From contig JAHLMM010000001.1 in the NCBI GenBank assembly GCA_018920365.1, forward strand, positions 199,628 through 263,627: DNA of 64,000 bases, in the 5' to 3' direction. The stretch comes from Candidatus Aenigmatarchaeota archaeon (GTDB lineage: Archaea > Aenigmatarchaeota > Aenigmatarchaeia > CG10238-14). The position numbers were made by a program, and so were the translations under genes. Positions 4,166 through 57,630 of this stretch are shown in pieces; the stretch's first letter is position 1; the number at the start of each line of letters is the position of its first letter. Below the pieces are notes generated by a model that worked only from the letters and a program-made list of their open reading frames with translations, did not search any database and was not told where the DNA came from.

Positions 4166-5428
4166 ATGCAAATAAAAGCAGATCTTCACCTTCATAGCAA
4201 ATATGCTAGAGCTACCAGTAAGGATATGGATATTCACAGCCTTTCTGATTATGCTAAAATTAAAGGATTGAATTTGCTCGGAACAGGTGATTTTACACAT
4301 CCTAAGCAATTAAATGATTTAAAGAAAAAACTTGAACCAATAGAAGACAAAGGATTGTACAGATATAATGATGTTTTTTTCATGTTAACAACAGAAATGG
4401 CCACTTTTTATTTTCAGGACAAAAAATCAAGAAGAGTTCATCATTTAGTTCATTCACCTAGTTTTGAAATAGTGGATCAGATAATAGATGTTTTATCAAA
4501 AAAAGGTGCAAACACAGGTATAGATGGAAGAATGATGATGAAAATATCATCTCCAGAGCTTGTAGAAATACTTCATCAAATAAGCAAGGATATACATATT
4601 ATTCCTGCACATATATGGACACCTTATTTTGGTTGTTTAGGAAGCGTGACAGGTTTTGATTCAATTAAGGATTGCTATTTAGATCAGACAAAAAATATTT
4701 TTGCTATTGAAACAGGGTTAAGCAGCGATCCTTTAATGAATTGGAGAGTTTCAGAATTGGATAATTTTGTTTTAATGTCAAACTCAGATTCACATTCACC
4801 TTGGCCTTGGAGATTGGGTAGAGAGGCAAATGTTTTTGAATTAGATGAAATGAATTATTTTGAATTATGGGATGCTATTAAAAATAAAGATAGAAGCAAG
4901 TTGCTATATACTATTGAAGTTGATCCTAATTACGGCAAGTATCACTATACAGGACATAGAAATTGCAATGTTGTAATGCATCCGAAAGAAGCGAGGAAAC
5001 AGAACAATATATGCCCTGTATGCAAAAAGCAAATGACAATAGGCGTATTGCAGAGAGTTGAAGAATTGGCTGACAGAGAAGAAGGTTTTATTCCGAAAAA
5101 TGCTGTGCCATTCAAATCTCTTCTACCTTTATATGAAATAATATCTTTTGTTAAGGGGAGCAAGCAACTTTATTCAAAAAAAATAGTTGAAGAACAGAAT
5201 AAAATAATAAATAATTTTGGCAGCGAGCTCGAAGTTTTGATTAATGCAAGTTTTGACGATTTGATCAAAGTTACTGATGAGAAAATTACCAAAGCCATAA
5301 TTGATATAAGAGAGCAAAGAATATTGTTCAAACCAGGATATGATGGCACTTATGGAGAACCAATATTTAATGGAGAAAGAAAATTAAATTTTAATAAATC
5401 ACCACAAAAAAGCTTATCAGATTTTTAG
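4166..5428 (+). CDS. PHP-family phosphoesterase with a C-terminal zinc ribbon (COG1379-like).
   Basis: N-terminal PHP motif KADLHLHSKYARATS…GLNLLGTGDFTHP. A downstream HxH/Asp-rich region follows. C-terminal CNVVMHPKE…CPVCKK is a zinc ribbon. Confidence 0.7.
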   Translation: MQIKADLHLHSKYARATSKDMDIHSLSDYAKIKGLNLLGTGDFTHPKQLNDLKKKLEPIEDKGLYRYNDVFFMLTTEMATFYFQDKKSRRVHHLVHSPSFEIVDQIIDVLSKKGANTGIDGRMMMKISSPELVEILHQISKDIHIIPAHIWTPYFGCLGSVTGFDSIKDCYLDQTKNIFAIETGLSSDPLMNWRVSELDNFVLMSNSDSHSPWPWRLGREANVFELDEMNYFELWDAIKNKDRSKLLYTIEVDPNYGKYHYTGHRNCNVVMHPKEARKQNNICPVCKKQMTIGVLQRVEELADREEGFIPKNAVPFKSLLPLYEIISFVKGSKQLYSKKIVEEQNKIINNFGSELEVLINASFDDLIKVTDEKITKAIIDIREQRILFKPGYDGTYGEPIFNGERKLNFNKSPQKSLSDF

Positions 5429-5501
5429 GGTTCGTGGTCCAGCTGGTTAAGACGCTGCCCTCACATGGCAGAAATCGCCGGTTCGAATCCGGCCGAACCC
5501 A
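5428..5501 (+). tRNA. tRNA-Val (anticodon CAC), no intron.
   Basis: Cloverleaf folded by hand. Acceptor GGGTTCG/CGAACCC. T-arm GCCGG-TTCGAAT-CCGGC. Anticodon stem CTGCC/GGCAG with loop CTCACAT. Discriminator A. It sits in a GC-rich island within an AT-rich context. Confidence 0.85.
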
Positions 5502-10518: not shown

Positions 10519-11094
10519 ATGAAATTGCACATCTATCTTTTCAGACATGGAAAAACATATTTTAATTTAGCAAAAAGATTTACAGGTTGGAAGGATTCTA
10601 AATTATCTCCAGAAGGGATTAAGAATGCAAAAACGCTGGCAAAAAAAATGAAAAATCTTAAATTTCAAGTTGCTTTCTGCTCATCTTTGTCAAGATCAAA
10701 AGACACTTTGAAATATGTTTTAAAATATCACCCAGAATGTAAAAGAATAATAGTTGATGACAGAATTATAGAAAGGAGCTATGGCAGACTTCAAGGCAAA
10801 TATCACAAGTCAATAATAGAGAAATATGGTCAAAGACAGTTTGATATATGGCACAGATCTTATGCTGTTGCTCCTCCTGGCGGCGAATCGATAAAAATGG
10901 TTGAAAAAAGAGTTAGATCATTCATCAAAGATTTATTAAAAATGATGAAAGAGCAAAAAGTTAATGTTGCAATATCGGCTCATGGAAATTCTATGAGGCC
11001 GTTCAGAAGATATTTTGAGAAATTGACAATAAAAGAAATGATGAAATTAGAAAATCCGTATGACGAATACTTCCATTATACTATAGAGGTTTGA
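10519..11094 (+). CDS. Histidine phosphatase (phosphoglycerate mutase-like superfamily).
   Basis: The catalytic RHG motif (LFRHGKTYFN) is present. A second His occurs in SAHGNSMRPF. Confidence 0.65.
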   Translation: MKLHIYLFRHGKTYFNLAKRFTGWKDSKLSPEGIKNAKTLAKKMKNLKFQVAFCSSLSRSKDTLKYVLKYHPECKRIIVDDRIIERSYGRLQGKYHKSIIEKYGQRQFDIWHRSYAVAPPGGESIKMVEKRVRSFIKDLLKMMKEQKVNVAISAHGNSMRPFRRYFEKLTIKEMMKLENPYDEYFHYTIEV

Positions 11095-13252
11095 ATTTTT
11101 TTATTGTCAAAGAGTTTATAACCACAGAAACAGAGCTAAAAGCCATAGCAACTCCTGCTATCATAGGATTTAACAAAAACCCTGTGAATGGATATAGTGC
11201 ACCAGCTGCTATAGGTATTCCCAATGAATTGTAAAAGAATGCCCAAAACATGTTTTGCTTTATTTTTTTCATTGTTAATTTGCTTAAATTAATAGCATTT
11301 ATTGCATCAAAAAGGTTGTTTTTAACTAGTATTATATCTCCAGTTTCAATAGCAATATCACTTCCAGCGCCTATAGCCATGCTAACATCTGCTCTAGCCA
11401 AAGCTGGTGCATCATTAATTCCGTCCCCAATCATCAAAACTTTTTTTCCTTTTTTTTGTAGCTTCTTTATTTCATTCTCTTTTTCGTTTGGCATAACTTC
11501 AGCTATTACATTGTTTATTCCAAGTTGGCTTGCTATGTAATTTGCAGTTCTAAAATTATCTCCTGTGATCATATAAACCTCCTTTCCATCTTTTTTCAAA
11601 ATTTCCACTACTTGTTTTGCTTCATCTTTTATACTGTCAGAAATGCAAATAAGACCAATTAGTTTTTTGTTCAAAGCTACGAGAAAAACAGTCTTACCTT
11701 GATTTTCAAACTCTTGTATTTTGTTTTCATTTTCTTTAAAATCTATGTTATTGCTATTCATCAAACTCCTGTTACCTACAAATATTTTGATATTTTTGTA
11801 TTTGGAAACAATTCCGTTACCAGGTATATATTTAAATTGAGATGGATTTGGTACTCTGATTCCATTTTCTTCAGCTTTTTTTATTACAGCTTCAGCCAGC
11901 GGATGATCAGAATTTTTTTCGGCAATAGCTGCATAAAGAAGCGTATTATTTTTTCCAAAAGAGATAACGTCAACCACTTCTGGCTTGCCTTTTGTAAGTG
12001 TACCAGTTTTGTCAAAAACAACAGTGTCTATTTTATTCATTTTTTCAATTGATTCAGTGTTTTTTATTAAAATACCCATTTCAGCGCCTTTTCCACTTCC
12101 CAACATTATTGCTGTCGGAGTAGCTAGACCCAATGCACAAGGGCATGCTATTATCAATACAGATATGAAAATGCTTAATGCAAAGTAGAGGCTTTGTGAT
12201 AAAACAAAATACCAAATAAAGAAAGACATGACAGCTATTGAAAAAACAACTGGAACAAAAACAGAACTTATTTTATCAGCAATTTTTTGTATTGGCGCTT
12301 TTTTCGTTTGAGCATCTTCAATCAATTTTATTATCTGATTTATCATAGTTTCTTCTCCTATTTTTGTAGCCTTTAAACGAATGTATCCATTTTTGTTTAT
12401 AGTTCCTCCAAAAACTTCTTGACCTTTTACTTTTTCAACCGGAATACTTTCCCCAGTTAACATTGATTCATCTATTGTTGCATAACCATCAATTATAACA
12501 CCGTCAACAGGTATTTTCATCCCAGGTTTGACTACAATTATGTCGTCTTTTTTGATTAAACTGATATCTATTTCAATTTCTTTACCATCTTTCAATAAAA
12601 TTGCATTTTTTGGTCGTATTTCCATAAGTTTTTTTATCGCATGTGATGCTTTCCCCTTCGTTAGTGCTTCCATCCATTTACCAAGAATAACAAATGTTAT
12701 TATGACAGTTGATGTTTCAAAATAAAGATGATCTCCAAATTTTAATGGATAAAAAAAGGAAAGAACACTGTAGAAATATGCAGCAGAAGTACCAACAGCT
12801 ATCAAGGTGTCCATGCTTGCTTTTCGATTTTTCAATGAATAAAATGCGCCTCTGTAAAATATGTATCCAACAAAAAACTGCACAGGAGTTGACAAGCAAA
12901 GCAATATTATATTTTCATATGGTATTTCAATACCAAACCATTTGAAAGGCATTGATATCAAAAACACAGGTAGTGTAAAAATAATTGAAATTATGAATAG
13001 TTTTTTTAATTTTTTTATTTCATAGTCATTGAAAACATCATCATTTTTTATAACAGAATATCCAAGATTTTCTATAACTTTTGCTATTTTTTGAGGATTT
13101 GTCAGATTTTCATCGTATTCAACAAAAGCTGTTTCTGTAGCTAGGTTTACATTAGCCTTTAATACACCGTTTGAATTTTTAAGAGAAGATTCTATATTTT
13201 GTGAACAGCTTGCACAATGCATTCCTGATATTTTTAGCTTTGCATTTTTCAT
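11081..13252 (-). CDS. copA: Copper-translocating P1B-type ATPase.
   Basis: N-terminal HMA domain (GMHCASCSQNIE). The intramembrane CPC motif is ACPCALGLATP. The phosphorylation site is DKTGTLT. The hinge is GDGINDAPAL. Confidence 0.9.
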   Translation of the reverse strand: MKNAKLKISGMHCASCSQNIESSLKNSNGVLKANVNLATETAFVEYDENLTNPQKIAKVIENLGYSVIKNDDVFNDYEIKKLKKLFIISIIFTLPVFLISMPFKWFGIEIPYENIILLCLSTPVQFFVGYIFYRGAFYSLKNRKASMDTLIAVGTSAAYFYSVLSFFYPLKFGDHLYFETSTVIITFVILGKWMEALTKGKASHAIKKLMEIRPKNAILLKDGKEIEIDISLIKKDDIIVVKPGMKIPVDGVIIDGYATIDESMLTGESIPVEKVKGQEVFGGTINKNGYIRLKATKIGEETMINQIIKLIEDAQTKKAPIQKIADKISSVFVPVVFSIAVMSFFIWYFVLSQSLYFALSIFISVLIIACPCALGLATPTAIMLGSGKGAEMGILIKNTESIEKMNKIDTVVFDKTGTLTKGKPEVVDVISFGKNNTLLYAAIAEKNSDHPLAEAVIKKAEENGIRVPNPSQFKYIPGNGIVSKYKNIKIFVGNRSLMNSNNIDFKENENKIQEFENQGKTVFLVALNKKLIGLICISDSIKDEAKQVVEILKKDGKEVYMITGDNFRTANYIASQLGINNVIAEVMPNEKENEIKKLQKKGKKVLMIGDGINDAPALARADVSMAIGAGSDIAIETGDIILVKNNLFDAINAINLSKLTMKKIKQNMFWAFFYNSLGIPIAAGALYPFTGFLLNPMIAGVAMAFSSVSVVINSLTIKKFKPL

Positions 13253-13674
13253 TTAAATCTCCATATTCCTTTTTCAATATCTGATTTTTTAATTACAACA
13301 TCATTACCCACCAAACTGTTTGGTAAATAACCAGGCCAGCAACCTCCAGAAACCTTGTTTTTACTTCCTAAATCATTTATCAAATACTTGTTACCACAAT
13401 TATTGCAAACTATGTAATTTCCATCTTGACTGTAACCTTTTTTGTTTTTGTAGCATATATCACATGCATCAAATGCTGTTTTTATAGAACTGTCGCTCGT
13501 TTTCACGGCAAAAAATCTTATTTTTATACCATCCTTTTCGTATTCGTACCATCTTGCATTTTCTGTGATTTCTGATTCAGGTATTTTTATGACTTGAGCA
13601 TTTGATGATTCAATGAGATTTTTTGTAAGGAAAAACATTAACAACACAATCAAGGTTAAAACTAGAACTTTCAT
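13249..13674 (-). CDS. Secreted Cys-rich small protein, a candidate periplasmic metal-binding partner of CopA.
   Basis: Signal peptide or N-terminal TM (MKVLVLTLIVLLMFF). Cys clusters are CDICYKNKKGY…CNNCGNKY…GGCWPG. The gene overlaps the copA start by 4 nt. Confidence 0.45.
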   Translation of the reverse strand: MKVLVLTLIVLLMFFLTKNLIESSNAQVIKIPESEITENARWYEYEKDGIKIRFFAVKTSDSSIKTAFDACDICYKNKKGYSQDGNYIVCNNCGNKYLINDLGSKNKVSGGCWPGYLPNSLVGNDVVIKKSDIEKGIWRFK

Positions 13675-13678
13675 TAAA

Positions 13679-14560
13679 TCACCTTATATTACAACCACAT
13701 GATGAAATTCCACAGCTATTTTGAACATTTAAAGAGCTTATGTCATTTTTTTGGTTTTGATTGTCTTCAAATTCAGTTGCTTTGTATGTCCTGAAAACTT
13801 CGATTGATAATATTTCGGATTTTGATATTTTTGTTTGGTCATAAGATATGAAAAAGTAATTTGGAAATTCAAACTTTACATTTTCCACACCATCTAAAGA
13901 TTTTAATTCTTCTGTTATCAATGGTGCATGACCAGAACATGGTATATCTACACTTATTTTCAACACAGGATAGCTACTATATTCAGATGCAGATGCTGTT
14001 GATATATTTGTTAACAGAGGGAAAATAAAAAAGAAAAAAAGAACATTTACACCCAACGTTGATCCGTACATTACAGCAAGATACCCCCATTTTCTTTTTA
14101 TCCCATTAAACGACAGAAACCCGTTATTTTTCAAGTATACAAAAGACGATACTGTCGCAAAAATCAAAGATACTCCTATCAATATATAGAAAAAGTAGGG
14201 GTTCATTAAAATTGGCTTGAAAACATTTACGAAAAACGTTGATCCAATTATTGAAGCGATTACAAATGCGATGCAGCCTAAATGTGGTATTATACCATAA
14301 ATAATACCTTGTTTTATTGAATAACCTTTGCATATGCACGGTTTCTTACCACACACACAATAACCAAGCGATATTATTTTTTTGTTTATTTCTTCAATAT
14401 TGGTTTTATTTTGATCATACACCACTTCAGCAGACTCTGCTCCCAAGTTTACTTTAATTTTCTTCACACCTGGTAATTTAGATACAAAGTTTTCTATATT
14501 TCTAGCACAGCTATTGCAATGCATTCCTTTTATTTTTATCAACTTTTTTTTACCTTTCAT
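13679..14560 (-). CDS. Heavy-metal-associated membrane protein with an HMA–Cys-rich linker–TM–HMA-like–CxxxxCxC architecture.
   Basis: N-terminal HMA domain (KGMHCNSCARNIE). Linker CVCGKKPCICKG. Three to four TM helices follow. A second ferredoxin-like domain carries PCSGHAPLITEELKSLDGVENV. The C-terminus is CGISSCGC. Confidence 0.6.
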   Translation of the reverse strand: MKGKKKLIKIKGMHCNSCARNIENFVSKLPGVKKIKVNLGAESAEVVYDQNKTNIEEINKKIISLGYCVCGKKPCICKGYSIKQGIIYGIIPHLGCIAFVIASIIGSTFFVNVFKPILMNPYFFYILIGVSLIFATVSSFVYLKNNGFLSFNGIKRKWGYLAVMYGSTLGVNVLFFFFIFPLLTNISTASASEYSSYPVLKISVDIPCSGHAPLITEELKSLDGVENVKFEFPNYFFISYDQTKISKSEILSIEVFRTYKATEFEDNQNQKNDISSLNVQNSCGISSCGCNIR

Positions 14561-14574
14561 GCAAAATTATATAA

Positions 14575-14611
14575 TGAAACAACATATCAACAATTGTTTG
14601 AAACTAGTTTC
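14575..14611. promoter_or_regulatory. Cluster of palindromes (AACAATTGTT and GAAACTAGTTTC, flanked by the TGAAAC/GTTTCA pair) in the 69-bp gap inside the copA operon. This is a candidate metal-responsive operator.
   Basis: The 10-bp perfect palindrome is at 14589–14598. The 12-bp perfect palindrome is at 14600–14611. Both lie 30–50 bp upstream of the minus-strand start at 14560. Confidence 0.4.
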
Positions 14612-14629
14612 ATCTAAAATAAATTATAT

Positions 14630-15154
14630 CTAGTAGTTATTTGGTCTATTTTTAATTATTACAATGTTTGTCATTCCCCTTCTTTTTCTTTCAACTATAC
14701 CCATGCCTTCAAGTCTGTCTAGTATTCTTGTAACTTTAACTTTGGAAAATCCTGTTCTTTCAACTAGGTCTGATTGAAAAACAGCACCATCTGATTCAAC
14801 TAATTTTTGAACCAATTGTTTTTCATCATTATTAAGTTTTTTCATTATATCAGTCAAGTCAACTTTTTGCGAATGTTCATGAATTTTAACTCTCTTTACT
14901 TTTGTGACTATTTTTTCTTCTTGACCAAAGAAAATCATATATAAACCTATTATTATTATGAAAACCATTATTCCAATGCTTATGTTTGTCTGAAAATCAA
15001 TCGAACCCCACATTGGGCATTCTGGACCATGCGAACATGAAGTGTTTACTATATCTGTCAAGGCTTTGTTAAAAGAATAAATTATGAAGCCAATAAGTAT
15101 GGCAATTCCAAGTATTATAAATCCAACTATTCTGTTTTTCATAAAACAATTCAA
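14630..15154 (-). CDS. Membrane-anchored winged-helix protein, a candidate one-component metal sensor/regulator.
   Basis: Two TM helices bracket a short loop carrying CSHGPECPMWGS. The C-terminus is a wHTH (QSDLVERTGFSKVKVTRILDRLEGMGIVERKRRG). Confidence 0.55.
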   Translation of the reverse strand: MNCFMKNRIVGFIILGIAILIGFIIYSFNKALTDIVNTSCSHGPECPMWGSIDFQTNISIGIMVFIIIIGLYMIFFGQEEKIVTKVKRVKIHEHSQKVDLTDIMKKLNNDEKQLVQKLVESDGAVFQSDLVERTGFSKVKVTRILDRLEGMGIVERKRRGMTNIVIIKNRPNNY

Positions 15155-15173
15155 TCAACAAAGCTTAAAAAAC

Positions 15174-15482
15174 TTAATAAAAGTTATCTTTTCTTAAAAT
15201 TCTCCAATGATAAATAAATAGTGGCAAACCTACAATCAACATTGATATTGATGATGAAATAGACCTTTGCCTTTCTGATCTTATAGTTTCAATTTGTATT
15301 TTTCTAGTTTGTTCATTTTCACTAATATTTTCAGGAAAATATGTGTATATCATATCGGCATCTTTGAATATGTATGTTCTCAATAATATGTCAACAATTT
15401 TAACACAACTTATCACGACAAGTATTAAACCTATTGCAGAAAATGTATATAGATATATCAATTTTATTATTTCACCTTTCAT
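15174..15482 (-). CDS. Small two-TM membrane protein.
   Basis: There are two hydrophobic helices. The gene lies between the upstream and downstream ORFs with 4–20 bp spacing. Confidence 0.35.
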   Translation of the reverse strand: MKGEIIKLIYLYTFSAIGLILVVISCVKIVDILLRTYIFKDADMIYTYFPENISENEQTRKIQIETIRSERQRSISSSISMLIVGLPLFIYHWRILRKDNFY

Positions 15483-15486
15483 TTAA

Positions 15487-16278
15487 TCACACCCTTGAAA
15501 TTTTATATTCATAATTGCCATCTTTGTTTATATCAACATAATAAAAACTACTGTCAGATAATATTTCAGCATCTATTTTGAATGAATCCAAAGTTTGCTC
15601 TTGTTTTTGCTTCCCGCCATGTGCCCTTTCAAAAGCAGATGTACCATCCTTGCCACACAAGTTAAGTATTGATTTATCGCCACCCGGATGCTTACTTGAC
15701 CAATCAGTTAAATCGTAAGCCTGGTTTCTTATTACTGTTATGCATTTTCCATGCTGATTACATTCTCCTTTGTATTTTACTCTTACATTTGCTGCTGAAG
15801 CGAAACATGAATTAGAATATGTTTTTCCATCATCACCACATACAGGGTCATAAACCTGTATACATACAACATTCTGTTCTTGTCTTGACCTGTTTATAAT
15901 TTCATCATGCTCATTTAGTTTAATTATTATATTTTGTATTATCTCTTGTGATTCTTTTCCTTTCAATGAATTTAACCTTTCAACAAGTCGTGATCTTGCA
16001 TTCTGATAATTTATCCATGCTTTTTCTACAGCATTTGTTTTATTCATAGAGTTGATTTTTTCATATTCCAGTAATTTTTCTTGAACAAATCTTTCTTCAA
16101 GCTCTATTCTTCTCTCTTGATTGAATGTAAATGTTAGTTGAATATTTCTTTTTAACTCTTTAAGAAAATAAAACGGACTATCTGGAAGTATTCCAATGTC
16201 TTGCGCATTAGCAATAGGAAACAACAGAAAAGCTACAATAAAGATTTCTATCTTCATTTTATTCATATTCATGTTCAT
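15487..16278 (-). CDS. Secreted protein with a DUF5667-like N-terminal domain, a Kazal-type domain, and a cytochrome b5-like heme-binding domain.
   Basis: Signal peptide (KIEIFIVAFLLFPIANA). PDSPFYFLKELKR resembles the DUF5667 motif. The Kazal signature is CIQVYDPVCGDDGKTYSNSCFASAANVRVKYKGEC. The cyt-b5 signature is YDLTDWSSKHPGGDKSIL…GKDGTSAFERAHGG (HPGG). Confidence 0.6.
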   Translation of the reverse strand: MNMNMNKMKIEIFIVAFLLFPIANAQDIGILPDSPFYFLKELKRNIQLTFTFNQERRIELEERFVQEKLLEYEKINSMNKTNAVEKAWINYQNARSRLVERLNSLKGKESQEIIQNIIIKLNEHDEIINRSRQEQNVVCIQVYDPVCGDDGKTYSNSCFASAANVRVKYKGECNQHGKCITVIRNQAYDLTDWSSKHPGGDKSILNLCGKDGTSAFERAHGGKQKQEQTLDSFKIDAEILSDSSFYYVDINKDGNYEYKISRV

Positions 16279-16339: not shown

Positions 16340-16603
16340 ATGAAAAAATCTTTATTTGAAATATTGTCAAACCCAACAAGAGTTAAAATAATCAAAGTTT
16401 TGTCAAAAGGAGAGTTGTGCGCATGTGAAATACCATCAAAGGTTGGGAAATCACAGCCTAATATATCACAACAACTCAAACTTCTTACAAAGGCAAAAAT
16501 TTTAAAACCGAGAAGAAAAGGAAAGATGATATTATACAGTCTACTAGACAAAAGAGTCATTGATATTATAGACGTTGCAGAAAGCATCGAGGTGAGTAAA
16601 TGA
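16340..16603 (+). CDS. arsR: ArsR/SmtB-family HTH transcriptional regulator.
   Basis: The text ILSNPTRVKIIKVLSKGELCACEI is the HTH region with the metal/metalloid-binding Cys pair. Confidence 0.8.
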   Translation: MKKSLFEILSNPTRVKIIKVLSKGELCACEIPSKVGKSQPNISQQLKLLTKAKILKPRRKGKMILYSLLDKRVIDIIDVAESIEVSK

Positions 16604-16842
16604 AAATAGAAGTTTTAGGATCTGGCTGTTCAAAATGCAAAAAAATGTATGAGTTAACAAAAATAGCGGCGGAACAACTTAATATAAAAGATAAAGTAGA
16701 ATATATCACAGGGGAAAGTGGAATAAGTAGGATTTTAGAACTTGGTGCAAGCTCTAGTCCTGTAATATCAGTTGATAATAGAGTAGTCATATCTGGTTTT
16801 ACATCTGATATTGAAAAGATAAAAAAAGCTATTAGGCGATGA
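16600..16842 (+). CDS. Thioredoxin-like redox-active disulfide protein 2 family (CxxC).
   Basis: The text MKIEVLGSGCSKCKK…PVISVDNRVVISG is characteristic of the small Trx-fold proteins that accompany DUF318/ArsP permeases. Confidence 0.75.
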   Translation: MKIEVLGSGCSKCKKMYELTKIAAEQLNIKDKVEYITGESGISRILELGASSSPVISVDNRVVISGFTSDIEKIKKAIRR

Positions 16843-16843
16843 A

Positions 16844-17818
16844 ATGGATATTTTTCAACCAATACAAAAATTTGCAGATTTTATTACATTTAATTTAATG
16901 TCGTTGCCTAAAGAAAGTTTTTTTGGGCAAGCAATGAACTATTTTATTTATGATGTAATTAAAATAGGATTACTTTTGGTTTTAATCAATTATATAATGG
17001 CTATAACTAGATACTATTTTCCTACAGAAAAAGTGAAGAAAACATTAACTAAAAGAAGATGGTTTGGTTTTGATTATTTGACTGCAGCTTTGCTTGGAGT
17101 TGTGACTCCGTTTTGCTCATGTTCTTCTATACCACTCTTTATTGGCTTTCTAAGTGCAGGAATACCTCTGGGTATAACATTTACTTTTCTTATAAGTTCA
17201 CCATTAGTAAACGAGGCGTCATTATATTTGTTTCCAGCTTTATTTGGGCTCAAAATAACATTAGTATATAATTTAATAGGGATAACAATTTCAATTTTAG
17301 GTGGAATTTTTATACAATCATTAAAACTCGATAGATATGTTAATAGAGATTTGATGAAATTTAAATCAAGACAACAAATAGAGGACGAAACAAAAAAAAT
17401 GAAATTGAATGATCTTTTGAAGTACTGGTGGGATGATGGTTGGATTATAACGAAACAGGTATTTCCTTATGTGTTAATTGGCGTTGGTTTAGGTGCACTG
17501 ATACATGGATTTGTCCCAGTTAGTTTTGTTGAAAAATATATGGCATATGAGACAGTTTGGTCTATACCAGCAGCTGTATTTTTTGGCGCACCTTTGTATG
17601 CTAATTCTGTTGCAGTAATTCCTATAATGGAAGCTTTGGTTGAAAAGGGTGTTCCTATTGGCACTGCTTTAGCATTTATGACATCAATAGTTACAATATC
17701 TTTACCAGAGATACTCATGCTCAAAAGAGTTATGAAATGGCAGTTGTTATTATTGTTTTTTGGAATAACTGTTTTTGGAATAACTGTTATGGGTTATGTG
17801 ATAAATATTTTGTTTTAA
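16844..17818 (+). CDS. arsP: DUF318-family permease, a candidate organoarsenical efflux permease ArsP.
   Basis: The conserved TPFCSCSSIP motif lies in a TM helix. There are 8+ TM segments. The gene follows arsR and the Trx-like gene. Confidence 0.7.
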   Translation: MDIFQPIQKFADFITFNLMSLPKESFFGQAMNYFIYDVIKIGLLLVLINYIMAITRYYFPTEKVKKTLTKRRWFGFDYLTAALLGVVTPFCSCSSIPLFIGFLSAGIPLGITFTFLISSPLVNEASLYLFPALFGLKITLVYNLIGITISILGGIFIQSLKLDRYVNRDLMKFKSRQQIEDETKKMKLNDLLKYWWDDGWIITKQVFPYVLIGVGLGALIHGFVPVSFVEKYMAYETVWSIPAAVFFGAPLYANSVAVIPIMEALVEKGVPIGTALAFMTSIVTISLPEILMLKRVMKWQLLLLFFGITVFGITVMGYVINILF

Positions 17819-49205: not shown

Positions 49206-49296
49206 TAGCCCCGAGCGGATTCGAACCGCTGTCAACGGGTCCAAAGCCCGCTATCCTTGGCCATTGTCCTGGTTAAACCATCTAGACGACGGGGCT
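49206..49296 (-). tRNA. tRNA-Gln (anticodon TTG) with a ~17-nt insertion in the D-loop, a putative non-canonical intron.
   Basis: Minus-strand sequence AGCCCCG-TC-GTCT-[AGATGG TTTAACCAGGACAATGG CCAA]-GGAT-A-GCGGG-CTTTGGA-CCCGT-TGAC-AGCGG-TTCGAAT-CCGCT-CGGGGCT-A. It has the A1-U72 pair and discriminator A typical of archaeal tRNA-Gln. The total is 91 nt. Confidence 0.7.
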
Positions 49297-57304: not shown

Positions 57305-57427
57305 ATATTATTGACCCCCTGTAGCTCAACGGTAGAGCATTCGGCTGTAGGCATTTGCATATGCATTTGCCACCGGCATTTGCTCGCAGAAACCGAAGGG
57401 TTGCTGGTTCAAATCCGGCCGGGGGGA
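57305..57427 (+). tRNA. tRNA-Tyr (anticodon GTA) with a 51-nt intron at the canonical 37/38 position.
   Basis: The C1–G72 pair is the archaeal/eukaryal Tyr identity element. D-arm GCTC-AACGGTA-GAGC. Anticodon stem TTCGG/CCGAA with loop CTGTAG-[intron 57341–57391]-A. T-arm GCTGG-TTCAAAT-CCGGC. Discriminator A. Confidence 0.8.
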
Positions 57428-57504: not shown

Positions 57505-57630
57505 ATAATCACATGGTTGGCGACCAAAACGAAAAGGAAACACCCGTTCCCATTTCGAACACGGAAGTTAAGCTTTTCGGTGATTTGAGTTGTACTGCAT
57601 TCGTGCGGGAAGCTCAAGACGTTGCCAACC
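57505..57630 (+). rRNA. rrf: 5S ribosomal RNA (unlinked, standalone).
   Basis: The text GGTTGGCGACC…CACCCGTTCCCATTTCGAACACGGAAGTTAAGC…GTACTGCATTCGTGCGGGAAGC…GTTGCCAACC has the conserved archaeal 5S loop-C / helix III-IV sequence. The 5' and 3' ends are complementary (helix I). Confidence 0.85.

Follow-up and report, generated by a model that had tools for sequence, protein, structure and literature searches.

How are the copper genes controlled that lie together in a 64-kb stretch of DNA from a Candidatus Aenigmatarchaeota metagenome-assembled genome (MAG), a stretch with a G+C content of ~30% throughout that we call the window? On its minus strand, copA stands in a tight row of genes behind one for a 170-residue protein, in which an earlier note on this DNA had seen a membrane-embedded one-component winged helix-turn-helix (wHTH) regulator with an outward loop, distinct from CopR/CopT and from CueR/CsoR. 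The comparative evidence set out here supports that view. We propose, with a probability of roughly 0.6, that this protein is a one-component system, at once transmembrane copper sensor and transcription factor, that acts as a sensor-repressor. A wider and more tentative claim, to which we give slightly less than even odds, is that it represents a new class, in which a Cu(I) sensor at the tip of a transmembrane (TM) hairpin acts through a tethered winged helix, clamped onto an operator of three parts around the TATA box. This class would be the main copper regulator of the DPANN archaea and Methanofastidiosa, and would also control an undescribed Cu(I)-relay family marked by an HMA domain, His/Cys in the membrane, an outer CxGH domain and a Cys tail.

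The protein consists of a first TM helix (residues ~5-24), a hairpin tip, a second TM helix (~54-73), a basic linker of ~25 residues and a C-terminal winged helix at residues 96-163. The loop between the TM helices, CSHGPECPMWGS, carries at its tip the motif C36-x-H38-G-x-x-C42-P-M44-W45-G (CxHGxxCPMWG), and the alignment of homologues shows C36, H38, G39, C42, M44, W45 and G46 as invariant. Counted over 83 genomic homologues, C36 is kept in 82, H38 in 78, G39 in 81, C42 in all 83, M44 in 80 and W45 in 78. The Cys/His/Met loop that had been pointed out between the two helices is therefore real, near-invariant and far from chance. The N-terminus (MKNR) and the segment after the second helix are basic and the loop is acidic. 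Given the positive-inside rule, and since the DNA-binding domain must be cytoplasmic, the tip is expected to face outward. In an AlphaFold2 model of the monomer the motif lies at the tip of a helical hairpin (2-35/43-72), which is followed by a disordered region (77-94) and by the wHTH (96-163). Unlike the soluble MarR dimer, in which such helices form the interface, the model has no helices after the wing.

Such a pair of cysteines allows another interpretation, in which the regulator and its operator are as we describe them and the loop is a thiol/disulfide switch, responding to redox state or sulfide, in place of a direct Cu(I) site. Oxidation of the C36-C42 pair (possibly catalysed by Cu(II)), or its reduction, would then alter the hairpin and hence DNA binding. 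Periplasmic Cys pairs are switches in ToxR and CadC, the most distant members of the present family keep the Cys pair only, and genes for DsbA-like and thioredoxin-like proteins are among those found behind the operator (see below). However, within the main clade His38, Met44 and Trp45 match the cysteines in conservation, although a disulfide switch would have no need of them, and they are typical Cu(I) ligands or cation-pi partners. Furthermore, the predicted regulon consists mostly of Cu(I)-specific proteins (CopZ, CopA and Met-rich peptides). On this evidence a redox switch seems rather unlikely to us, and we favour a Cu(I) site at the tip.

The family is large and closely knit. We found 1784 homologues, typically 60-70% identical, which is unusually high for a small regulator, in Aenigmatarchaeota, Pacearchaeota, Woesearchaeota, Nanoarchaeota, Micrarchaeota and Parvarchaeota, and relatives are encoded in 483 GTDB species genomes, including Methanofastidiosum. 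The protein of the window shares 100% identity with a hypothetical protein from a Candidatus Aenigmatarchaeota MAG, and the names given in the databases are hypothetical or 'MarR family'. The match to MarR models is marginal (PF01047 and PF12802, with 25.4 bits at a cut-off of 24.6 and 28.3 bits at a cut-off of 27) and extends over residues 122-158 only; profile matches to MarR structures in the PDB reach an E value of ~5e-4 at best, with the wHTH alone. Pfam DUF7343 (PF24034) matches residues 108-166 with 47.2 bits (cut-off 27.6), which covers the winged helix and leaves the TM hairpin uncovered, and in the Pfam/NCBIfam scan no model lay over the N-terminal sensor hairpin. The closest folds to the wHTH in PDB profile and Foldseek searches are the DNA-binding domains of ArsR, MarR and CodY; among solved structures, only generic matches to wHTH and CopZ/HMA folds were found for the proteins of the cluster. 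No TRASH or Lrp match was found in the regulator in Pfam/NCBIfam down to an E value of 0.1, nor any Penicillinase_R or Trans_reg_C match in Pfam, and there are no cysteines beyond residue 42. Judged by these profiles, the regulator lacks the defining features of CopR/CopT, CopY/BlaI and ToxR/CadC, and is MarR-like in its wHTH only. The searchable literature, whose coverage leaves out most subscription journals, held no description of DUF7343, of the dyad discussed below, of copper regulators in DPANN archaea or of membrane-anchored metal sensors in archaea.

A search with the hairpin alone against 1.84 billion representative proteins gave 93 matches. All but two are at most 212 residues long with the hairpin at the N-terminus; the two are long Cys-rich proteins, which we rejected as chance matches. 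None of the 93 has another output domain fused to the sensor hairpin, which was found joined only to this wHTH. Since the matches are all short and carry the hairpin N-terminally, it does not appear to be a module common to kinases or other outputs.

What would such a protein bind? Its recognition helix and wing are near-invariant in the alignment (KVKVTRILDxLEG...ERKRRGMTN), and this is matched by an invariant operator. The features concerned are as follows.

15174-15482, minus strand: open reading frame (ORF) of 102 residues, a 2-TM protein and member of Pfam DUF5671
15164-15172, minus strand: TATA-like box of the regulator promoter, TTTTTTAAG, centred ~26 nt upstream of ATG 15142
14630-15142 (ATG start; 170 residues) or 14630-15154 (TTG start; 174 residues), minus strand: ORF, regulator gene
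14600-14611, no strand: operator dyad GAAACTAGTTTC, a 5-2-5 perfect palindrome just upstream of the transcription factor B recognition element (BRE) and TATA box
14582-14590, minus strand: TATA-box position of the copper-gene promoter, TTGATATG, from the position-anchored consensus of 76 modules
14576-14580, minus strand: distal half-site GTTTC (+31 relative to the start of the dyad), lying between TATA box and transcription start
13679-14560, minus strand: ORF of 293 residues, HMA-3TM-HMA-like protein
13249-13674, minus strand: ORF of 141 residues, DUF2318/FtrD-like protein
11081-13252, minus strand: ORF of 723 residues, copA

The ORF list confirms the coordinates of the four genes described with copA on the minus strand, together with their tight packing. 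Neighbouring genes lie 4 nt apart or overlap by 4 nt (as the start of copA does with the stop of the preceding 141-residue gene), and the single gap, of 69 nt, separates the regulator gene from that of the 293-residue protein. Of the palindromes that had been noticed in this gap (14575-14611), one, GAAACTAGTTTC, turned out to be an operator conserved across the family. The other, CAACAATTGTTG, covers the BRE/TATA region, is specific to the window and not conserved, and was rejected as an operator.

The conservation of the dyad was assessed in 80 genomic loci (L001-L080, 985 kb) fetched around regulator homologues. Allowing up to one mismatch, 75 copies were found in the 985 kb, where shuffled sequence gives ~3, and 71 of the 80 loci contain it; its columns are at least 90% conserved, and the 64-kb window holds the single copy at 14600-14611. 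The dyad, with the geometry GAAAC-TA-GTTTC, opens a larger module, TGAAACTAGTTTC-N10-TTATAAGG-N-GTTTC with the start codon at +51, and the consensus of 76 copies reads T-GAAACTAGTTTC-A-n-ACAAT-nnn-TTATAAGG-T-GTTTC-ATT. The TATA-like consensus TTATAAGG occupies +22 to +29 from the dyad start, and the third half-site, an exact GTTTC, is found at +31 in 65 of the 76 modules. The start codon of the next gene lies modally at +51/+52 (ATG 14560 of the window at +51), which is ~26 nt from the TATA centre, so that the mRNA of the copper genes is expected to be leaderless.

In ~50 of 75 cases the module abuts or overlaps the stop codon of the regulator gene. In about 20 of the loci L001-L080 the dyad overlaps the TGA stop of the sensor gene, so that a terminator would not fit there; transcription begun at the sensor's probably constitutive promoter would run on into the copper genes, unless it is halted by the bound protein as a roadblock. 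Where other genes intervene between the regulator and the copper genes, the module travels with the copper genes, and about 19 of 25 such displaced copies directly precede an HMA, FtrD-like or CopA gene. At two loci, L041 (7950) and L064 (~8475), GTTAC replaces GTTTC in the right half of the dyad and in the distal half-site together, a coordinated change which suggests that one protein reads both sites. Co-variation of the recognition helix with these GTTAC operators was considered and rejected as uninformative, the helix being unchanged.

The arrangement of the sites bears on the sign of the regulation. A regulator acting through the dyad could be a copper-dependent activator, since the dyad lies where the motif of Pyrococcus furiosus CopR lies (PMC7830388). 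However, the fixed half-site between the TATA box and the start is in the classic position of a repressor, and we prefer repression; the activator is considered further below, together with the other ways in which the regulator might do without sensing free copper itself.

The regulator gene has a promoter of its own. Its true start is ATG 15142 (MKNRIV...) and not TTG 15154, since the homologues all begin with MKNR and a TATA-like box lies ~26 nt upstream of this ATG, as in 80 relatives. In 82 aligned upstream regions a TTTAAATA-like box precedes the regulator ATG by ~26-30 nt, and the transcript is therefore likely to be leaderless. The dyad is usually not present upstream of these 82 genes. 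Since the gene has its own promoter box and no operator, the sensor is probably made constitutively, and the copper genes would form a separate regulated unit.

Which genes stand behind the module? On the same strand as the regulator there follow some or all of a gene for a CopZ-like protein, one for a homologue of the 293-residue protein or for an HMA-DsbD_2-cupredoxin protein, sometimes one for an FtrD-like protein, and copA. Among the 57 loci with at least 5 kb of downstream sequence, copA lies on the same strand downstream of the regulator in 44, so that the cluster is conserved beside copA in related genomes, and an HMA-3TM-HMA-like or HMA-DsbD_2-cupredoxin protein is encoded after the regulator in 45. 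When all neighbouring ORFs were clustered, no conserved gene emerged upstream of the regulator. By its profile scores (TIGR01511, 648 bits at a cut-off of 397; TIGR01525, 670 bits), its one N-terminal HMA domain and the transmembrane motifs of its translation, CPC (ACPCALG), YN (FFYNSLG) and MxxSS (MAFSSVS), the CopA of the window is a P1B-1-type Cu(I)/Ag(I)-exporting ATPase. The 141-residue protein, noted earlier as a secreted Cys-rich protein, does exist and belongs to a known family, Pfam PF10080 (FtrD-like, formerly DUF2318; 93.3 bits, cut-off 26.3, E value 1.1e-26). Its pattern CDIC-x15-CNNC-x17-C is spaced slightly more widely than the bacterial CxxC-x(13)-CxxC-x(14,15)-C (PMC6083913), and it is probably exported or anchored, by a signal peptide (MKVLVLTLIVLLMFFL...SNA) judged by eye only. 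This gene is optional, being found behind the operator in only 13 of the 80 genomic loci and as the first gene behind the module in 9 cases. The DUF5671 gene accompanies the cluster only in the near-identical relative L001 and is therefore not part of the conserved system. The notion that the four genes form a single conserved unit thus has to be given up; as the comparison of loci defines it, the conserved unit is the regulator, the promoter/operator module and the copper genes behind the module.

Since the genomic loci had all been selected through the regulator, the search was also made in the reverse direction. A scan of metagenome contigs for the exact module, with the regulator playing no part in the selection, gave at least 120 loci (L081-L200). 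Among the matches listed, to which the following counts refer, the regulator gene ends at most 160 nt upstream of the module in 54 of the 97 loci with upstream room and lies elsewhere on the fragment in a further 22 (76 of 97 in total). In 59 of the 102 loci with at least 300 nt downstream, the module is followed first by an ORF of HMA, HMA-membrane, FtrD-like or CopA type. The regulator, the module and the copper genes are thus associated in both search directions.

Other first genes behind the module encode small TRASH-like or zinc-ribbon proteins, secreted Cys-rich or Met/His-rich peptides, DUF411/CopG-like proteins, DsbA-like or thioredoxin-like proteins, and a membrane protein with CEYCCG...ACGCAHS. 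The small TRASH-like proteins have the pattern CPxC...YCxLCGM...FCC and the secreted Cys-rich peptides are of the CGSCNGGC type; examples of these other genes are found at L028 8506, L043 6549, L096, L119, L098 and L088. Since the remaining first genes are also of copper-handling types, the module appears to mark a copper regulon, which is predicted to include several unnamed families.

In 21 of the 97 loci, mostly on short contigs, the fragment holds no regulator gene, as would be expected if the module were a well-conserved promoter for some other factor and the membrane wHTH protein were non-regulatory, for example a tether of DNA or protein at the membrane. However, the neighbourhoods show no other conserved candidate regulator, and the module adjoins the regulator's stop codon in the majority of cases counted above. 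Furthermore, the DNA-contacting helix and wing are near-invariant, like the operator, and in two loci with tandem regulator copies the module drives the second copy. We regard this explanation as very improbable, and take the membrane protein to be the factor that reads the module.

The position directly behind the operator is most often occupied by the gene for a homologue of the 293-residue protein. The HMA-TM-HMA architecture first read from the window sequence is borne out by the AlphaFold2 model (mean predicted local distance difference test, pLDDT, 80) and by Foldseek: the model places an HMA domain at residues 4-64 and, beyond three TM helices, another domain of beta-alpha-beta-beta-alpha-beta fold at 199-263, and Foldseek returned only HMA/CopZ structures, the best being the two-HMA N-terminus of Bacillus subtilis CopA, which aligned to both ends. 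The N-terminal HMA domain (PF00403, 74 bits, cut-off 24.8, residues 8-67) has an invariant C15xxC18 (MHCNSC conserved). An alignment of 30 homologues shows an invariant P92-H93-x-G-C96 in the first TM helix and an invariant P207-C208-x-G210-H211 in the C-terminal domain, and the PCSGH motif and the Cys/Gly-rich tail are conserved. The C-terminal domain scores below the HMA threshold (14.2-18.6 bits, cut-off 24.8); its fold is HMA-like, and the CxGH ligands occupy the position of the HMA metal loop. Since three TM helices follow the cytoplasmic domain, the C-terminal domain should lie outside, and this agrees with the Cupredoxin_1 domain fused at the C-terminus of about a dozen homologues. The CxCxxxxCxC linker is present in the window protein and in only a few of the aligned homologues, so it was dropped as a family feature. 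Homologues without the HMA domain have a CC pair a few residues before the first TM helix, and the window protein has CVCGKKPCIC at the equivalent position. Such versions occur at L002 8941, L003 8558, L007 6431, L018 4982, L051 1782 and L106.

The likeness to MerT/MerP holds for the architecture; homology of the TM part was not found with the NCBIfam/Pfam models. MerT homology of this part was rejected, the MerTP_fusion and MerT_CopZ_Se models matching only HMA-type parts; the TM part had no Pfam or NCBIfam match, and isolated TM segments of three homologues gave none in either collection at E values up to 10. For homology to a DsbD_2 (PF13386) half-repeat, hhalign of the TM alignment against the HMA-DsbD_2-cupredoxin proteins gave a suggestive probability of 84%, but the alignment is very gappy (78 columns over 195 positions) and Pfam gave no direct match, and we did not accept this homology. 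Like MerT/MerP and MerTP, the protein has three TM helices with thiol ligands, an HMA fold outside and an HMA domain (NmerA-like) inside, and by analogy this layout suggests a thiol relay across the membrane. Unlike MerT, it has PHxGC and not CC in the first TM helix, its outer motif is CxGH and not CxxC, and it occurs in the context of a Cu(I) exporter, with no MerA or MerR.

In L006, L009-L012, L017 and other loci (e.g. L012 8835-10409), many of them from Woesearchaeota/Nanoarchaeota, a protein of 470-520 residues is encoded between the operator and copA, usually after a CopZ gene. It comprises an HMA domain, an extra TM helix, DsbD_2, Cupredoxin_1 and a Cys/Gly tail, and appears to be uncharacterised. 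Since both this protein and the 293-residue protein have an HMA domain on the inside, His/Cys within the membrane, a metal domain on the outer side and a tail with cysteines, a shared role is suggested.

The frequent presence of such a membrane protein raises the question of whether the regulator senses copper by itself. It might instead read a membrane partner, either the 3-TM protein or CopA, in the manner of flux sensing or a trigger transporter, or it might be the copper-dependent activator mentioned above. The outward Cys/His sites and Cys tail of the 3-TM protein could pass copper to the loop, and the regulator co-occurs with a 3-TM or DsbD_2 protein in the 45 of 57 loci already counted. 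However, some loci with regulator and module have only CopZ and CopA, or other first genes, and lack the 3-TM protein, which means that no single partner is obligatory. Neither the partner-reading nor the activating form seems likely to us, and we retain the reading in which the regulator itself binds copper and represses.

How might such a repressor and the genes behind its operator work together? We propose that a membrane-tethered dimer would bind the dyad and the distal half-site via its winged helices and block recruitment of RNA polymerase, a site between the TATA box and the start being the usual position for repressors in archaea. Cu(I) or Ag(I) bound at the Cys/His/Cys/Met tips would alter the packing of the TM hairpins, so that the DNA is released and the operon de-repressed. 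CopA would then export Cu(I), fed by the cytoplasmic HMA domain of the 3-TM protein or by CopZ. The 3-TM protein may be a membrane-integrated copper chaperone or relay working with CopA, in which the path would run from the cytoplasmic CxxC (the CC pair in HMA-less versions) through the His/Cys of the first TM helix to the outer Cys/His domain and Cys tail. The exported Cu(I) may be captured by this CxGH domain, by the tail and by the DUF2318 protein, acting as an additional thiol-rich binder outside.

Several points weigh against this proposal. We infer metal binding, DNA binding and copper induction from comparative genomics, and the movement of copper by the 3-TM protein is our proposal. 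The evidence from the genomic loci was selected via the regulator and only the metagenome scan is independent of it, and that scan includes the 21 fragments that lack a regulator gene. The AlphaFold2 model of the regulator is of moderate quality (pLDDT 74, predicted template modelling score 0.36) and monomeric. With 7 bp between their centres, the half-sites are closely spaced for many wHTH dimers, and the GTTAC variants of the operator go with an unchanged recognition helix. Cysteines paired outside the cytoplasm might just as well serve as a redox switch, and a dyad upstream of the BRE is also found at archaeal activators such as P. furiosus CopR (PMC7830388).

A close functional parallel is with CopY of the Firmicutes, a BlaI/MecI-family protein that, like the proposed regulator, is a winged-helix dimer repressing a copZ/copA-type operon. 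CopY wHTH dimers bind an N2-spaced dyad, TACAxxTGTA (PMC5772342), of the same geometry as GAAAC-TA-GTTTC, and the binding of Cu(I) by thiolates releases the DNA. CopY differs in being soluble and in sensing cytoplasmic Cu(I) by a C-terminal CxCxxxxCxC, whereas the candidate site of the present regulator is the outward tip of an N-terminal TM hairpin. The archaeal CopR/CopT regulators (P. furiosus PF0739, Sulfolobus CopR) are likewise encoded beside copA, with a motif directly upstream of the BRE (PMC7830388). However, CopR is cytoplasmic and octameric, combines an Lrp-type HTH with TRASH and recognises the motif TTNNCAWWWTGNNAA (PMC7830388), whereas the regulator described here is membrane-anchored and has a different dyad with an extra half-site downstream of the TATA box.

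Membrane-bound transcription factors are known in archaea, as with ArnR (PMC6396743). The regulator resembles ArnR and the bacterial ToxR, CadC and TcpP in that a single polypeptide spans the membrane and (for the regulator, as predicted) binds DNA directly. In ToxR and CadC an N-terminal wHTH of the OmpR type is followed by one TM helix and a folded domain in the periplasm, and ArnR has an N-terminal HTH and C-terminal TM helices; in the regulator this order is reversed, with an N-terminal 2-TM hairpin, a C-terminal MarR/DUF7343-like wHTH and a sensor reduced to a tip of ~10 residues. We know of no membrane-bound one-component factor of the ToxR/CadC/TcpP or ArnR type that senses metal. CusS and CopS, in agreement with the role proposed here, sense copper on the outer side of the cytoplasmic membrane and induce efflux, but they are histidine kinases that need a separate response regulator, and the present system has no kinase or receiver.

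The products of the copper genes have parallels of their own. CupA of Streptococcus pneumoniae, like the 3-TM protein in its proposed role, is a membrane-tethered copper chaperone of a cop operon that serves CopA (PMC7558416); it has one TM anchor and a cytoplasmic cupredoxin-like domain, whereas the 3-TM protein has candidate metal sites on both sides of the membrane and in its first TM helix. The DUF2318 domain of Campylobacter jejuni FetA (Cj1660) shares with the 141-residue protein the PF10080 family, the CxxC...CxxC...C pattern and a location outside the cytoplasm (PMC6083913, PMC10783030). In FetA, however, it is a domain of an 8-TM protein in the Ftr1/P19 iron-uptake cluster, whereas here it is a stand-alone protein of 141 residues in a copper-efflux operon.

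Upstream of the DUF5671 gene, at 15487-16278 on the minus strand, lies a gene for a 263-residue protein that has a signal-like segment at its N-terminus and joins DUF5667 with a Kazal-type inhibitor domain and a cytochrome b5-like haem-binding domain, a fusion that is odd for an archaeon and is shared only with the closest relative, L001. This gene and the DUF5671 gene were considered as operon members and rejected, being found with the cluster only in L001. Divergent from the 263-residue gene, at 16340-17818 on the plus strand, is a tight operon of an ArsR-family regulator, a Thioredoxin_3 protein and an ArsP_1 permease. Genes for ArsP, ArsR or Trx3 recur near the sensor gene in L004, L005, L016, L018, L033, L055 and L066, which suggests a loose metal or metalloid island. 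Elsewhere in the window, Rfam matches at 57315-57427, 49206-49262 and 57516-57630 represent a 113-nt tRNA, probably with an intron, beside a 5S rRNA, together with a borderline tRNA-like match of 57 nt, and ARAGORN reported only a tRNA-Val at 5428-5501.

To our knowledge, the only copper sensors described from archaea are cytoplasmic Lrp/TRASH regulators of a few lineages in culture, and almost nothing is known of regulation in the DPANN archaea, with their tiny genomes and few signalling systems. If our interpretation is correct, the regulator would be, as far as we know, the first one-component sensor of an extracytoplasmic metal, and a minimal transmembrane signalling device of 170 residues that works without either a kinase or a partner. 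As a compact part, it would also be a candidate for use in biosensors of copper or silver. The HMA-3TM-HMA-like and HMA-DsbD_2-cupredoxin proteins draw attention to a stage of copper export that is still unexplored, namely the fate of Cu(I) at both faces of the membrane. The sensor gene, its promoter, a precisely defined operator and a predicted regulon together make up a complete and testable regulatory unit present in several hundred genomes.

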